64,000 nt of DNA. It comes from a virus. Lineage: Duplodnaviria > Caudoviricetes. Positions within the stretch are counted from its first letter, which is position 1. Each line of letters begins with the position of its first letter. Location of the stretch: IMG/VR virus record IMGVR_UViG_3300012979_000002, positions 56,527 through 120,526 of that record, one strand, 5' to 3'. Shown here piece after piece: positions 53,238-63,531 of this stretch. The translations under genes were made by a program, and so were the position numbers. The notes below the pieces were generated by a model, which saw nothing but the letters and a program-made list of their open reading frames with translations, was not told the DNA's origin and did no database searches.

Positions 53238-53346
53238 ACTTGTTTCTCCTTTCTATATTATTTGTGTAATATAAAAAATGTTCTTTTTAAATTACAATTA
53301 TATTATAATATAAAAATGAACCTTCTGAGAACTTTTTAAACCTTTC

Positions 53347-54190
53347 AAAAAGTCCTTTGAAAATAAAATAACTTCGGGAGGACTATTGGATACCTCCAAG
53401 TCTTTTTCAAGATAACCGTGTATTCAGTCATAAAGTAAGGACCAGTACCTTACAAGCGTCGCATGGATTGGAGTAATATGTACCAAAACTGTTAAAACTC
53501 TCTGGTTTGTTCAGTTTCATGTTCCACATTTGTAATAATGGCTTTATTATATGCCCATGAGCCACACCGTTATACACGATTTAACACGCTTCAACCATCA
53601 GCACTCACTTACTTTCGTATTCCCGGCACGGTCATACTAAGTCTTGTGCCCGGTCGCCCATCGACCTTCCTCTTACTCATTATGCCTTCGCATACTCGCA
53701 TCAGTTCAACGACTTATTGACGGTGTTCCAACCGTTGCTACGTACCCGCTTACAGCATCCACTGTTTTTAGCGTACCGGTCCCCCGGGATATGTATCTTC
53801 CAGCACATATCAATGACATAATGAAAGAGTATAAGGCTACTACACGCATCCACTCTGGCCGGAGTTTCAGCATAGTGTGTAGAGAGGAGTGGTTACCTCC
53901 AACATATAATGTTCCTCCTTTTTCTTAACTACTACGGATTTATGCACGCTGCCCATTGCTTCCTTATTTCAACCGCGCTAGGTCTTGCCTTTGGATTGTT
54001 TGCGACGCCAACTCGCACATCTCCTTTGACCTCGGAATCAATGGCACCTTACACTTGTTATCTCGACAGCCCCTCTCCCTCGTTCTTCCGAACTCCTGAC
54101 GTAGCTTTTGGCATCGTGTGAAAAGGCACTCTTAGGGCGAGACCACCCTTGTTCGAGTAACAAAGTTATTTTATTTTCAAAGAACTTTTT
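53347..54190 (-). ncRNA. Large structured ncRNA (~790 nt) enclosed by a 28-bp leader/trailer stem with a boxA-like sequence
   Basis: No credible ORF; raised GC; many hairpins; inverted repeats at 53347-53374 and 54163-54190; own promoter. Confidence 0.7.
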
Positions 54191-54205
54191 AATTTTACAC
54201 TTAAA

Positions 54206-54234
54206 ATTATATCATAATTTAGACCTAATTTCAA
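54206..54234 (-). promoter_or_regulatory. Sigma-A promoter of the large ncRNA
   Basis: TTGAAA-17-TATAAT with extended TG. Confidence 0.8.
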
Positions 54235-54262
54235 GTCTTTTGAAATATTTTTTTATAAAAAA

Positions 54263-54344: not shown

Positions 54345-54848
54345 TTACTTGATTAAATCTTGAAGTAATACTGGTTTGTAGTCCCAAAGTTCTACACAAG
54401 CACAAATATGGTTTTCGTCATTAGTTGGTTTGTCATGTTGGTGACCATAAATGTTTAAATAATGTGTATCCTTTTCTGGCACTCTGTGGTGTGAGAAGTG
54501 AATAGTTTCGTTTAGGTCGTCAAAGTGAATAATGACTTCCTCTTTATAAACTTGGATAAACTGTCCTTCAGTATAAGTAGATTTAGACCCGTGGTCATGA
54601 TTACCCATTACTAATATTTTTTTACCTTTTAATTGTTGACCCCATTTAATGATGTCCTCTCTTGACCCTAGGGCAAAATCCCCTAGACAAATAACAGTAT
54701 CATCATCGTGAACAACGGAGTTCCAGTTTTCAATGAGAGCCTTGTTCATTGACTCCACATTGACGAAAGGTCGATTGCAATACCCAATAATGTTTTCATG
54801 TCCCAAATGCAAGTCAGAACAAACATATACTTTTGACATACGAATCAC
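54345..54848 (-). CDS. Calcineurin-like metallophosphoesterase
   Basis: SDLHLGH, LGDF, GNHD, GHQH. Confidence 0.9.
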   Translation of the reverse strand: MIRMSKVYVCSDLHLGHENIIGYCNRPFVNVESMNKALIENWNSVVHDDDTVICLGDFALGSREDIIKWGQQLKGKKILVMGNHDHGSKSTYTEGQFIQVYKEEVIIHFDDLNETIHFSHHRVPEKDTHYLNIYGHQHDKPTNDENHICACVELWDYKPVLLQDLIK

Positions 54849-54896: not shown

Positions 54897-55412
54897 TTAC
54901 AAGTCTTTTAGTTTAGAAAACGCAGCTCTAAATTCGTGAAAACCAAGACCTGTGTATGTGTCGCATTTAATTAGTTTGTCTTTCAAGTTATCCATGTCGC
55001 TATCGTCATCTAAGATAACGAAGTTTGGCCATTGGTCCCCATAATTATTGTTTAAGTAAGTTGTAATCTCCATACCTCTAGTTCTATCAGGGATATAACT
55101 TAAAGATGGAGTACATCCTATGATTTCTATTTCGGGCAATAAACCACTGTTAGTTAGTGTTTCTTTTAGTTCTTCTAAGGTTAAAGATGTTCGCCAAGTA
55201 GATGATATGACTATTTTAGCACCGGTTGTTTTACACAACAGGTTTAGCCACATAACCGCTTGTCTATTTGAAACTCTTTTATGGTTAGGACTGTTAATAC
55301 AATAATAAAAGCCATCTTCATCAGGGGAAGGTCTCCCTCCCTCAATGGGTTCGGTATCTACAATGATTGTATTTAATACCCCATCTATGTCTAAAAAGAT
55401 TAGGTTATTCAT
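54897..55412 (-). CDS. HAD-family phosphatase (Swiss-army-knife RNA-repair type)
   Basis: IFLDIDGVLN, IVISSTWR, RG.EI, ILDD. Confidence 0.85.
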   Translation of the reverse strand: MNNLIFLDIDGVLNTIIVDTEPIEGGRPSPDEDGFYYCINSPNHKRVSNRQAVMWLNLLCKTTGAKIVISSTWRTSLTLEELKETLTNSGLLPEIEIIGCTPSLSYIPDRTRGMEITTYLNNNYGDQWPNFVILDDDSDMDNLKDKLIKCDTYTGLGFHEFRAAFSKLKDL

Positions 55413-56301
55413 TAGTCCACAACCTTGGATACATATACTCTCTAACTGCGGCTTTACGACTATCTTTAATAAGATAATCAACTAAAATTTCTAGTAGAAC
55501 TAATGGATGGGCATTTCTGCCTTCCAATTTGAAATTAGAAAAACCCATAGGAATGTAAGTATTTTCTATATCTAATGGAGAGATGTAGTGATTTTGAGTT
55601 CGAGCCTTTGCATAAGAACAAACTCCCCCATCACAAAAACTAAAACTAGTTTCCAGTCCAGACTCTAGCTGATTACGAGATGTTTCCTTGTAATGCTCTG
55701 CCTTGTTTGGACAGTCTGCATAGCAGGTAGAATTACATAATAATTCACATTTGTCTTTATGCTCTATGTTGTTTAAAAAATCAAAATCTCTGTTGTGGCT
55801 AAGGTCCAAAACGGTTAGGTAGTAATTTTTATTTATTTCTTCAAGTTGCTTGTCTTTGTCAGTTATTGTCTTTGTAGTTGAAGAAATGTAACGATACCTG
55901 TCACCATACTTATCACGCAAATGTTTCTCTAATGCTGGGCTATTACAAATAATTTCGTTATGACCAGTACAGAAAATGTCTGCTACCAAATTACAATAGG
56001 TGTCTAATGTATGTTGTTCTTCTAAAAGACAGTTGGTGAATGTTAAACGAACAGGTATTTGATGGTATTCCATAAATTCCCTGATACTTTCTAACTGCAC
56101 TTTATTTGGAGCAGGTATCATAACATTATTACGCCCTCCGTTCCAAATACAATTTGGAGCACCATAAATGGAACCAAATTTTACATTGTCTTTTAATACA
56201 CTACCGTCTGCCTCAAGCATTTCCATAAAAGGTTGCCATATAACACCAAGTTCAAAAATGCCTGGCAAGTGAAAAATTACCTCTTTACTATATCCTTCCA
56301 T
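55405..56301 (-). CDS. U32-peptidase-like Fe-S protein (possible RNA hydroxylase)
   Basis: ELL.N..C...C, FKLEGR; start moved out of the tRNA. Confidence 0.6.
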   Translation of the reverse strand: MEGYSKEVIFHLPGIFELGVIWQPFMEMLEADGSVLKDNVKFGSIYGAPNCIWNGGRNNVMIPAPNKVQLESIREFMEYHQIPVRLTFTNCLLEEQHTLDTYCNLVADIFCTGHNEIICNSPALEKHLRDKYGDRYRYISSTTKTITDKDKQLEEINKNYYLTVLDLSHNRDFDFLNNIEHKDKCELLCNSTCYADCPNKAEHYKETSRNQLESGLETSFSFCDGGVCSYAKARTQNHYISPLDIENTYIPMGFSNFKLEGRNAHPLVLLEILVDYLIKDSRKAAVREYMYPRLWTNE

Positions 56302-57324: not shown

Positions 57325-58266
57325 CTATCCACGATAGCGAATAGTGAATGTATCTGTTGTTCCTGCAGTCGCATAGCTGTATACCCTCATTCCTTCAGCA
57401 TCATTAAACCAAATGCTTTCTGGTGTTGGGTCATTAGGCTTAGTCGCAGTTATTGTTTCTTCTTCGTCATCTTTTGGATAGTCTTCTATTACTAGCACAT
57501 TTACTTTCTTTGTGTAATTAGTGCAACCATCTATAGCAATCTTATTTCCATTTACCACAGGTGCGTGTTCGTCAGTGTTACCATAACTTACAATACCCCT
57601 TGGTTCTGTTGGTTCTAAGAAATATAGAAAATTACCTAATTCTTGTGGCTTATACCCATGCTCTTTCATTTGATTTCTTACACGAAAAGCATGATGATGC
57701 CCTATAACTACTCCTTTGTTATGAACATTATGGATTTGTTGGAAACTGTCTTCTATGTCCCATAACATATAATGTTCATCGGTATCTTTCCAGTTTTCTA
57801 AATTAGGATTGATGCCGGCATGACAAAAGATAAAGTTCTTTGTTTCAAAGTATAAAGGCATATTTTTAAACCATTCCAATACATGCCCCGGAATATTCTT
57901 GCGTGCTTTATCTACCAACTCTGGGTTGAATAGATTTTCAGTTATCCCGGTGAAGCTTTGGATGGTTGCTCCTAAACCGTTATGTAATATATTAAATAAT
58001 ACGAACTCCCCATCCATTCCTTTCTCAAGATATTCTTGGAAGAAACAATCATGGTTCCCCTTAATTGCTATGGTATTCTTAGGGCGTTCTTTTAAAAGTC
58101 TATATATATCTACACTTTTTGGTCCGCGGTCGAAAGCATCTCCACAAGACACTAAGAAATGTCTAGGGTTATTTTTATCATAACCAGCTGCTAGTAACGC
58201 CTCCCTTAAGGCGTCAAGTTCACCGTGTACATCGCTAAAAACGAAATATTTATTAGTCTGTTTCAT
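57325..58266 (-). CDS. Metallophosphoesterase (Ser/Thr-phosphatase-like)
   Basis: SDVHG, GDAFDRG, GNHD, HAG, GHH. Confidence 0.9.
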   Translation of the reverse strand: MKQTNKYFVFSDVHGELDALREALLAAGYDKNNPRHFLVSCGDAFDRGPKSVDIYRLLKERPKNTIAIKGNHDCFFQEYLEKGMDGEFVLFNILHNGLGATIQSFTGITENLFNPELVDKARKNIPGHVLEWFKNMPLYFETKNFIFCHAGINPNLENWKDTDEHYMLWDIEDSFQQIHNVHNKGVVIGHHHAFRVRNQMKEHGYKPQELGNFLYFLEPTEPRGIVSYGNTDEHAPVVNGNKIAIDGCTNYTKKVNVLVIEDYPKDDEEETITATKPNDPTPESIWFNDAEGMRVYSYATAGTTDTFTIRYRG

Positions 58267-58483: not shown

Positions 58484-58881
58484 TGGTGGAGATGACGAGA
58501 GTCGAACTCGTGTCCAAAAACTTCTCCATATTATTACTTTCTTACAAGTTTAGTCTAGGTCGTTCTATCTTAATCCCCTACTACCTATACAATCTTGGGG
58601 TTAAGCTTTGCTTGAAGTAGTTCAATAGATACATCAGCAAAGAAATGTATTCTATTGTCTGTCCTTGAAGAGTAGAACCTTCTATGTTTTTGCTGACAGC
58701 TTACTGCTACTCGCATAGAAGTGTTGCTTAGGCGTATACTACGCTATTAAAAGAGAATAAAGATTTAACTTTATTAGCAACTCTTGAAAAAATGTTTCCA
58801 TTTATTTGTTTGTTTGGATAAGGCTCCCGCCACTTGTTTCATAATACTTTGATGCTCCTGTCGAAACCAGAATACATCCCC
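58484..58881 (-). ncRNA. ssrA: tmRNA
   Basis: 5' GGGGATGTATTCTGGTTTCGAC; 3' GAGTTCGACTCTCGTCATCTCCACCA; tag ORF at 58799-58728. Confidence 0.92.
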
Positions 58882-59022: not shown

Positions 59023-59082
59023 TCAAAGTGGGAGGGACTTGAACCCCCATCTTAATGTTTTTCCTTATTAAACTACCACTCG
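59023..59082 (-). other. tRNA-like element lacking the anticodon arm
   Basis: GAGTGG/CCACTT acceptor, GTTT..AAAC D-arm and GGGGG-TTCAAGT-CCCTC T-arm, with only ~8 nt between the arms. Confidence 0.55.
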
Positions 59083-62571: not shown

Positions 62572-62819
62572 TATCGTGGCATCAGCATAACTAGGGCTGT
62601 ATAAGTCCCAACCCGAGTTTAAATTAAGTTCTCGTATATAAAACAGTTAATCGTTAGCACGCAGGGCAATCGTAATTCCCTCCCATTTTACACAAATTTG
62701 TTGGGTGAGGACAAATTGTATCCACGACGGATATAGTCGAGGTTGTGGGTTAACCAGATACCCGCTGTTAGTATCACAAAAGAATACAGACTGCTCGTCC
62801 GTATCGGGCAGTCTTTCAT

Positions 62820-62952: not shown

Positions 62953-63029
62953 GTCCTCTTAGCTCATCTGGATAGAGCATGGCCCTTCTAAGGCCAGTGT
63001 GCTAGGTTCGAGTCCTAGAGGGGACGCCA
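62953..63029 (+). tRNA. tRNA-Arg(TCT)
   Basis: Cloverleaf, loop CTTCTAA, encoded CCA. Confidence 0.93.
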
Positions 63030-63035
63030 GTTGAA

Positions 63036-63191
63036 CGGGAAGTATGTCGTAATATCAGCGGCACCTGCGAGGGAGCAGGAGTGGGTAATAATGCTACTTG
63101 TTGTAAGACCAGGCCGACGAATGTCGCAACCCCTTATGAGAGGATAGATGAATAACCATACATCTTGGTGTAAGTCCAAGTTTCCCGACCA
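63036..63191 (+). ncRNA. 156-nt RNA with a tRNA-like acceptor stem, T-arm and CCA, but a novel body
   Basis: CGGGAAG/TTTCCCG-A-CCA; CTTGG-TGTAAGT-CCAAG. Confidence 0.65.
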
Positions 63192-63199
63192 TTTATTAT

Positions 63200-63290
63200 G
63201 CAGAGTTGGTCGAGTTGGTTTAAGGCACCGGTCTTGAAAACCGGCGTACGGGAGACTGTACCCTGGGTTCGAATCCCAGACTCTGCGCCA
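63200..63290 (+). tRNA. tRNA-Ser(TGA)
   Basis: Long variable arm, loop CTTGAAA, G73-CCA. Confidence 0.93.
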
Positions 63291-63373: not shown

Positions 63374-63384
63374 TTGAGTTTATT

Positions 63385-63505
63385 AAGCGAGGAGAAACCT
63401 CACCTTATGATTTATGTTAGTGAGGTAGAAAGTTAAATAATCGTCGGTTCAACTCCGGCTCGCCGGTTTACGGCGATGGTGAAGAGGCAAAACACGCTCC
63501 AGCTT
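63385..63505 (+). ncRNA. Circularly permuted tRNA mimic (YrlA/Y-RNA-like architecture)
   Basis: Closing stem, then T-arm, looped acceptor hairpin and D-arm in that order. Confidence 0.55.
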
Positions 63506-63531
63506 TATATATAATGTTAAGAGGTGTAACT

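Follow-up and report, generated by a model that had tools for sequence, protein, structure and literature searches.

A structured RNA gene of probable tRNA-Pro descent, with an 81-nt arm in the variable region, in the tRNA cluster of a gut phage

Inside the main tRNA cluster of a gut phage, two ordinary tRNA genes flank a 156-nt element that ends in CCA, and the question arises what kind of RNA it specifies. The element lies at positions 63036-63191 (+) of the window, which here means the whole stretch of 64,000 nt that was analysed, i.e. the final 64 kb of a 120,526-bp IMG/VR record that carries a 123-bp terminal repeat and is estimated to be complete. A preceding inspection of the letters (the sequence-only reading) had proposed a new class of RNA in which the top half of a tRNA is joined to an unrelated body of ~115 nt closed by GTATG/CATAC, and which may be aminoacylated in the manner of tmRNA. 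The analysis described here points to a gene for a conserved, structured RNA, with a phage tRNA-Pro gene as its ancestor; as a statement on structural and evolutionary identity, this is assigned a probability of about 0.7.

Cultured phages are only distant relatives of this phage; its DNA polymerase and that of SPbeta-like Bacillus phages share 41% identity. Near-identical contigs of the stretch originate from pig-gut and manure metagenomes, and contigs covering parts of it from bovine-gut and other animal gut samples. Among RNA sequencing runs, none matched more than 0.04 of the words sampled from the stretch. The position of the element between two normal tRNAs was confirmed. Upstream is tRNA-Arg(UCU) at 62953-63029 (+), which is CCA-ended and recognized by ARAGORN and by the Rfam tRNA model (56.2 bits); downstream is tRNA-Ser(UGA) at 63200-63290 (+), also found by both programs. 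A 6-nt spacer (GTTGAA) separates the CCA of tRNA-Arg from the element, and an 8-nt spacer (TTTATTAT) separates the CCA of the element from tRNA-Ser. No promoter-like or terminator-like sites were seen between tRNA-Arg, the element and tRNA-Ser, and co-transcription with the neighbouring tRNAs appears likely. With 48.7% GC the element stands out from the window (35.7%).

As the sequence-only reading had predicted, canonical tRNA finders were blind to the element. ARAGORN made no call on 63036-63191 by default, in intron mode, or with thresholds lowered to 80%, and Rfam returned no match to it either at the gathering score or at E<=10. When thresholds were relaxed to 70%, ARAGORN made calls that contradicted one another and were discarded: an Ile(tat) tRNA interrupted by a 73-nt 'intron' and two opposite-strand calls, namely a tRNA and a permuted tmRNA flagged 'Tag not identified'. 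On the full record the program listed 28 tRNA genes, but the terminal repeat makes one gene appear twice. The 27 distinct genes serve all 20 amino acids and include a normal tRNA-Pro(tgg), so that the element fills no decoding gap.

The minimum-free-energy structure of the window copy (-46.9 kcal/mol) is a full cloverleaf with one long extra arm. Its stability is modestly above that of shuffled sequences (z-score -2.0; five of 200 shuffles were equally stable). All parts are given on the plus strand. The acceptor stem pairs CGGGAAG (63036-63042) with TTTCCCG (63181-63187) in seven pairs, one of them G-U, and places C1 opposite G72 as is typical of tRNA-Pro. It is followed by the discriminator A73 (63188) and the encoded CCA (63189-63191). 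A U8-A9 linker (63043-63044) leads to a D-like hairpin (63045-63063) with a 6-bp stem and a loop, AATATCA, that lacks the GG of normal D loops. The adjoining anticodon-like arm CCTGC/GCAGG (63064-63079) has five pairs and a 6-nt loop, GAGGGA, at 63069-63074. The T arm CTTGG/TGTAAGT/CCAAG (63164-63180) consists of a 5-bp stem and a 7-nt loop, the latter being non-canonical: U54 and A58 are retained but GU replaces UC at positions 55-56. At the position of the variable arm, 81 nt (63081-63161) form a basal helix, a conserved 7x7 internal loop (AATAATG at 63087-63093 opposite ATGAATA at 63148-63154), a long helix and an apical GAAT tetraloop (63119-63122).

Sequence and fold thus bear out the 7-bp acceptor stem, the A discriminator, the encoded CCA and the 5-bp T arm of the sequence-only reading. 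However, the D and anticodon arms that it held to be replaced are both present as hairpins, and the body is itself related to tRNA: a complete cloverleaf accounts for about 75 of the 156 nt, and the 81-nt arm is the sole addition to it. As to the closing helix, the letters GTATG (63042-63046) and CATAC (63157-63161) are indeed there, but they are not paired in the minimum-free-energy fold and such a helix would share G7 with the acceptor stem. An acceptor-plus-T-hairpin pattern is frequent by chance (2,213 matches, 32 of them NCCA-ended, in a script search of both strands of seven records totalling 1.52 Mb) and hence proves nothing by itself; the case for the element rests on its exact tRNA-like spacing and on covariation.

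Comparison with the tRNA genes of related phages indicated where the cloverleaf comes from. The 5' acceptor strand CGGGAAG is identical to that of tRNA-Pro(UGG) in relative G003, and the tRNA-Pro genes of the clade all begin with CGG and finish with CCG-A-CCA. The anticodon stem CCTGC/GCAGG and the AG after it recur unchanged in tRNA-Pro(UGG) of relative G009, where the loop reads TTTGGGA as opposed to GAGGGA in the element. With filters off, covariance model R2 of the element aligned to ordinary tRNAs with the arm deleted, and tRNA-Pro(tgg) was the best non-self match in five of five tests. The five tRNA-Pro(tgg) genes scored 27.3, 27.7, 26.5, 25.0 and 23.5 bits and any other tRNA at most 20.2: in locus L083 tRNA-Pro reached 27.3 bits and the next tRNA 20.2, and on G004, G003, G010 and G009 the tRNA-Pro genes took the top four places (27.7-23.5 bits) ahead of a next match at 19.8. 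Since R2 ranks tRNA-Pro first, the supposedly unrelated body is better described as a remodelled tRNA-Pro core with one added arm. Judged by these sequence comparisons, the core of the element derives from a phage tRNA-Pro gene, an assignment to the tRNA-Pro lineage that concerns ancestry and not function. Proline identity elements described for E. coli include C1-G72, A73, G35, G36 and G37 (PMC9976931), and the window copy possesses C1-G72, A73 and GGG (G35-G36-G37). Binding of ProRS or of another tRNA-Pro-specific factor is therefore possible for the window copy.

Homologues were sought in loci surrounding a conserved 74-aa gene upstream of the tRNA cluster, and a single one emerged: positions 981-1138 of L086, a metagenome contig of 1,187 nt (56.3 bits, E 8e-14). 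The contig shows the order 74-aa gene, leader, tRNA-Ser(GCU), tRNA-Arg(UCU), element, tRNA-Ser(UGA), and the homologue occupies the same slot as the window copy, Ser(gct)-Arg(tct)-X-Ser(tga). The surroundings are well conserved between window and L086 (74-aa gene 83%, leader 84%, spacer 81%, tRNAs 95-100% identity, with tRNA-Arg(UCU) identical in 77 of 77 nt). The identity of the element itself, in contrast, amounts to 55% in the model alignment and 65% in a global alignment.

Despite this divergence the fold was maintained. In a comparison of two sequences whose alignment was fitted to the model, 17 of the 47 pairs had changed on both sides and were still paired, and 95.7% of the cells were standard pairs. 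Sliding the 3' partners by one to three columns lowered this value to 37-50% with zero to two two-sided changes, and in none of 500 shuffles were the observed pairing values reached. All eight helices are retained in L086, the four of the cloverleaf included. Two of the seven acceptor pairs are changed on both sides. The D-like stem has two compensatory changes and one one-sided change, the anticodon-like stem has two compensatory pairs, and three of the five T-stem pairs are compensatory, with six of the seven T-loop positions identical. In the 81-nt arm eight pairs, located in helices 5 and 7, are altered on both sides; its internal loop is identical in 11 of 14 positions and its GAAT tetraloop throughout. 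Unpaired columns are better conserved (66% identical) than paired ones (48%), the best-retained being U8-A9, which is the same in both copies, the loop AGGG, the internal loop AAUA/UGAAUA, the GAAU tetraloop and the T loop UGUAA(G/A)U. With the cloverleaf core enforced, L086 forms the same long hairpin at -50.0 kcal/mol, compared to a minimum free energy of -50.7 kcal/mol; its folding z-score is a modest -1.4. A MAFFT/RNAalifold analysis from sequence only recovered the acceptor, the core of the D stem and the apical hairpin; the T and anticodon arms were misaligned and not recovered. The two copies further differ by indels of 1-2 nt, which argue against a coding reading.

These data bear on the notion that the element is a decaying tRNA-Pro pseudogene with a chance insertion and devoid of function. 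Such a history would be in line with the loss of canonical D- and T-loop residues and of a 7-nt anticodon loop in a phage that has a normal tRNA-Pro, and also with the fact that most relatives are without the element and that it has been replaced in near-identical strains (see below). It is nevertheless very improbable, given that 17 compensatory pairs preserve every helix at 55-65% identity between flanks of 81-100% identity, that loops are better conserved than stems, and that a tRNA-like GC content is maintained in an AT-rich genome. The body being conserved in L086, the element is not the decayed or intron-bearing tRNA with an unconserved body that the sequence-only reading had named as its own refutation.

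The 3' end of the L086 copy reads TCGCCCG-C-ACA, i.e. it has C73 and lacks CCA (CACA where the window copy has ACCA). Its acceptor stem starts with U1.G72, and its anticodon-like loop, AGGGG, is only 5 nt long. This copy retains G72 and GGG but has U1 and C73, and it lends no support to the binding of ProRS or of a tRNA-Pro-specific factor. In six related records, 138 of 140 tRNAs have an encoded CCA. That one of the two copies lacks it argues against an essential role of encoded CCA and, by the same token, of a shared charged state, and aminoacylation is doubtful as a conserved feature; CCA could be added post-transcriptionally in copies of the L086 type.

The same homologue weakens the original proposal of a tmRNA-like, aminoacylated RNA with a tRNA top half and an unrelated body. 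An acceptor stem, a T arm, A73 and CCA are present as this proposal demands, and the element was called neither as tRNA nor as tmRNA or any Rfam family. Yet the D-like and anticodon-like hairpins covary and derive from tRNA-Pro, only one of the five GTATG/CATAC pairs can form in L086, and L086 has C73 without CCA. The hallmarks of tmRNA (RF00023) are also missing: position 3:70 is G-C rather than G3:U70, and neither a tag frame with a resume codon nor pseudoknots were called. Moreover, an ordinary tmRNA is already encoded in the window at 58484-58881 (ARAGORN, Rfam). An RNA of this new type accordingly has little probability.

Could the element be a decoder of proline codons after all, for instance a frameshift-promoting tRNA-Pro? 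Suppression of +1 frameshifts is a property of tRNA-Pro variants whose loops are enlarged. Opening of the closing C-G pair would extend the anticodon-like loop to 8 nt in the window copy and to 7 nt (CAGGGGG) in L086, and both loops contain GGG. The window copy additionally displays C1-G72, A73 and CCA, in agreement with proline identity (PMC9976931). Measured against canonical tRNA (RF00005), the cloverleaf with its 7-bp acceptor, D, anticodon and 5-bp T stems is in place, but a 7-nt anticodon loop with U33 and a three-base anticodon, the elbow residues (D-loop GG, T-loop UUCRA) and a score at the threshold of tRNA finders are absent. As folded, the anticodon-like loops are of unequal length (6 nt in the window copy, 5 nt in L086) and both lack U33, the T and D loops are without the elbow residues that ribosomal tRNAs retain, L086 combines U1.G72 with C73 and no CCA, and an arm of 81 nt would be unprecedented in a decoder. 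Because a 5-6-nt loop without U33 is found together with remodelled D and T loops, decoding on the ribosome is very unlikely, and an unusual proline decoder is quite improbable. The element is probably a look-alike of tRNA and not a decoder.

Excision of the 81-nt arm as an intron, to yield a functional tRNA comparable to those with the 'enigmatic introns' of Lak phages, is very improbable. Insertions have been reported in tRNA genes of gut phages (PMC6784885), and a second tRNA-shaped gene of the present genome has an insert of ~65 nt in its anticodon loop. The insert of the element, however, is in the variable region between the anticodon and T stems, not in the anticodon loop. After its removal the anticodon loop would still have 6 nt and the D and T loops would still be non-canonical, and consequently no canonical tRNA would be restored. 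The Rfam search of the element brought up no intron family, group I included, and ARAGORN in intron mode (-i) was blank down to 80% thresholds. Finally, the structure of the arm is itself conserved.

Apart from L086, searches for homologues were negative. With R2 the element was absent from 61 related virus records (13 records plus 48 relatives found via the polymerase; several loci were searched in part only) and it was likewise missing at 22 further loci containing the 74-aa gene. Covariance model R1, run on 14 records, matched only the element's own record. Against a cultured-phage collection of 50,697 records, blastn with the window copy gave one spurious match (E=6) and with the L086 copy none; in 11 related IMG/VR records it produced only chance matches of 14-19 nt, and nhmmer and short-word blastn on seven records and eight loci found nothing but the element itself. 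Motif searches were equally negative. In viral contigs, the T-arm 17-mer had three chance matches with no tRNAs nearby, a three-motif pattern and the pattern AGGG..GGTAATA..TGAATAAC had none, and an 18-mer of L086 had one chance match (L183) without a match to the model. A two-motif pattern was not found in metagenome contigs, and a scan of genome contigs gave a single chance match (L102) accompanied by neither tRNAs nor a model match. Several candidates from relatives were rejected. The 'top-half' structures at G010 104957-105128, G011 84006-84163, G009 82808-83049 and G010 95258-95424 were not homologues by R1 or R2, and gaps of 165-250 nt beside tRNA-Ser(tga) or tRNA-Arg proved to be small AT-rich reading frames with GGAGG-ATG starts instead of RNAs.

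The order of tRNA genes differs widely among relatives, and the slot of the element varies even between close strains. In assembled contigs from four metagenome runs, one pig-gut contig spans 62998-63222 with a single difference. In runs X7 and X11, contigs bridge tRNA-Arg to tRNA-Ser with different letters in between; gaps between contigs (X3, X7, X11) were not counted as absence, and only these bridging contigs of X7 and X11 were used. In X11 the flanking tRNAs show zero and two differences and the slot is filled by ~84 other letters; one loose end in this run resembles the 3' end of an ordinary tRNA. Replacement in near-identical strains characterizes the slot as an exchangeable cassette and the element as dispensable for the phage.

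Several further features of these genomes were recorded. The non-coding leader at 62572-62819, which extends from the 74-aa gene to the first tRNA, is 84% identical in L086 and ~70-74% in G003, G004, G009 and G010; it may contain the operon promoter or another structured RNA. Between tRNA-His and the HNH endonuclease gene that follows, positions 63374-63513 hold a T-arm-like hairpin (GTCGG/TTCAACT/CCGGC), and contigs of three runs span 63371/63377-63517 with 3-12 differences; this could be a tRNA remnant or the relic of a homing site. Next to tRNA-Met, the Rfam tRNA model matches 59024-59082 (-) with 35.7 bits where ARAGORN makes no call. ARAGORN is likewise silent on a 79-nt R2 match (18.8 bits) at L054:1461-1539 in relative G004, between tRNA-Asn and tRNA-Ile. 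Beside tRNA-Cys, ~1 kb (53238-54262) has many stops in all six frames and no Rfam match, and is ~71-72% conserved over its full length in G009, G010 and G004, making it a candidate for a large non-coding RNA.

Other observations relate to regions outside the window. Directly after tRNA-Met, at G000:C1:7086-7228 of the same genome, lies the second tRNA-shaped gene referred to above. It has canonical D and T arms in addition to the ~65-nt anticodon-loop insert, and is called Phe(gaa) by ARAGORN in intron mode. Its homologue in relative G004 (~L054:11703-11860) also follows tRNA-Met and shows compensatory changes in the acceptor stem. The mutually similar multi-hairpin elements G010 104957-105128 (~L066:4957-5128) and G011 84006-84163 (~L071:4006-4163, minus), each of ~160-170 nt, are placed between tRNA-Lys and tRNA-Phe. 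They have an 8-bp closing helix beside the T-arm-like TTAGG/TGGGAAT/CCTAA, end in TTTT without CCA, and did not match the model of the 63036-63191 element. In two relatives the polymerase genes (L010:501-4337 and L014:501-4340) are interrupted by eight and three in-frame stops, respectively, and the tRNA clusters of several relatives include tRNAs whose anticodon is CTA or TCA (e.g. L083:5422-5498 and L097:4710-4805). A stop codon has probably been reassigned in parts of the phage clade.

What might an RNA of this kind do? The best reading is that of a non-decoding tRNA-Pro mimic or scaffold that is processed like a tRNA. RNase P would cut at 63036, and the 3' side would be trimmed by the machinery that matures tRNA 3' ends. 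Excision by the tRNA machinery would make the core a scaffold for processing and stability and, at the same time, a tRNA-like docking surface. The working surfaces would be the conserved single-stranded parts, namely the AGGG loop, the UAA/GAA-type internal loop, the GAAU tetraloop and the UGUAARU T loop. As its most likely role, the mimic of tRNA-Pro would engage a tRNA-binding protein in place of the ribosome; candidate partners are a host defence nuclease directed at tRNAs and an enzyme specific for tRNA-Pro.

Part of the neighbourhood is relevant in this respect. Amid the minus-strand tRNAs and the tmRNA, Pfam identified the HAD domain of 'Swiss Army Knife' RNA-repair proteins at 54900-55481 (-) and a metallophosphatase at 57328-58266 (-); a frame at 54348-54848 (-) looks phosphoesterase-like by eye but has no Pfam match. 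Together, the three suggest an RNA-repair module. Phage tRNAs have been proposed to serve as counter-measures to host defences that cleave tRNAs (PMC10264068). A role as mimic or decoy would fit this proposal as well as the nearby tmRNA and RNA-repair-type proteins and the fast divergence of the element, and is put forward tentatively. A more elaborate version is doubtful: the core might recruit a factor that recognizes tRNA-Pro (ProRS, TrmD, EF-P) or serve as bait for a host nuclease that cleaves tRNAs, with the arm as an effector or protein-binding module. The element would then be a natural tRNA-scaffolded regulatory or anti-defence RNA, and phage tRNA clusters would be breeding grounds of fast-evolving mimics. 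If so, the divergence of the element (55-65% identity, compared with 81-84% in adjoining non-tRNA DNA) would reflect an arms race. In either version, a mimic or decoy would bring an RNA into the conflict of phages with tRNA-targeting host defences.

Irrespective of its role, the element affects how such regions are annotated. Phage tRNA clusters are usually described as tRNAs separated by empty gaps; the gap studied here holds a conserved, structured descendant of a tRNA of a sort that standard finders miss. We propose that a tRNA-Pro gene was duplicated, its anticodon loop disabled and its elbow loops remodelled, and that an arm grew from the variable loop. Along with the second tRNA-shaped RNA of the genome, the element suggests that phages harbour a wider range of uncatalogued RNAs, for which covariance models would be worthwhile.

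Among known RNAs, class II tRNAs (Ser, Leu, bacterial Tyr, Sec) have a fifth helix at the same position as the 81-nt arm, flanked by 1-2 unpaired nt. In contrast to these, the core of the element comes from the class I tRNA-Pro, its anticodon loop is reduced to 5-6 nt, and its arm alone is 81 nt long, while the entire Ser, Leu and Tyr tRNAs of this genome measure 84-91 nt. With tmRNA the element has in common only the acceptor/T-arm module at the ends of a larger RNA and, presumably, tRNA-like processing; it is set apart from tmRNA by the lack of G3:U70, a tag frame and pseudoknots. In Lak megaphages, tRNA genes of gut phages contain conserved 'enigmatic introns', which tRNAscan in eukaryote mode places in the anticodon loop (PMC6784885). 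As far as that description goes, the element differs in that its insert is a variable-arm hairpin whose removal would not yield a normal tRNA. A literature search of limited scope found no tRNA-Pro-derived RNA with a giant variable arm. tRNA folds that carry passenger RNA are represented by engineered tRNA scaffolds and by the tRNA-linked pre-miRNAs of murine gammaherpesvirus 68, in which, as is proposed for the element, the tRNA fold serves the processing and stability of an attached hairpin. To our knowledge, no passenger of this kind comes from a phage, and those described are carried within the anticodon stem or follow the tRNA. The element would represent a natural case of a tRNA fold acting as carrier for another RNA domain.

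The nearest counterparts are the species 1 (rnaC, 139 nt) and species 2 (rnaD) RNAs of phage T4, the 'RNA species I and II' named in the legend of a T4 map (PMC2330249). These are stable RNAs; like the element, they come from genes of ~140-160 nt located amid phage tRNA genes, and rnaC shares with the element a T arm beside the terminal helix and hairpins in between. Sequence and structure do not indicate homology: rnaC scores 12 bits with R2, within the range of ordinary T4 tRNAs, and its fold includes a canonical T arm (CCGGG/UUCGAAU/CCCGG) as opposed to the T loop UGUAAGU of the element. Unlike species 1, the element has kept the D-like and anticodon-like arms of tRNA-Pro and bears its extra RNA at the variable-arm position. 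To speak of a new RNA class was thus an overstatement: this tRNA derivative and T4 species 1 RNA belong to one general type. A tRNA-shaped stable RNA in a phage tRNA cluster is known from T4; in the element the tRNA-Pro origin is well resolved, and the architecture, with its truncated anticodon loop and 81-nt variable arm, is unusual.
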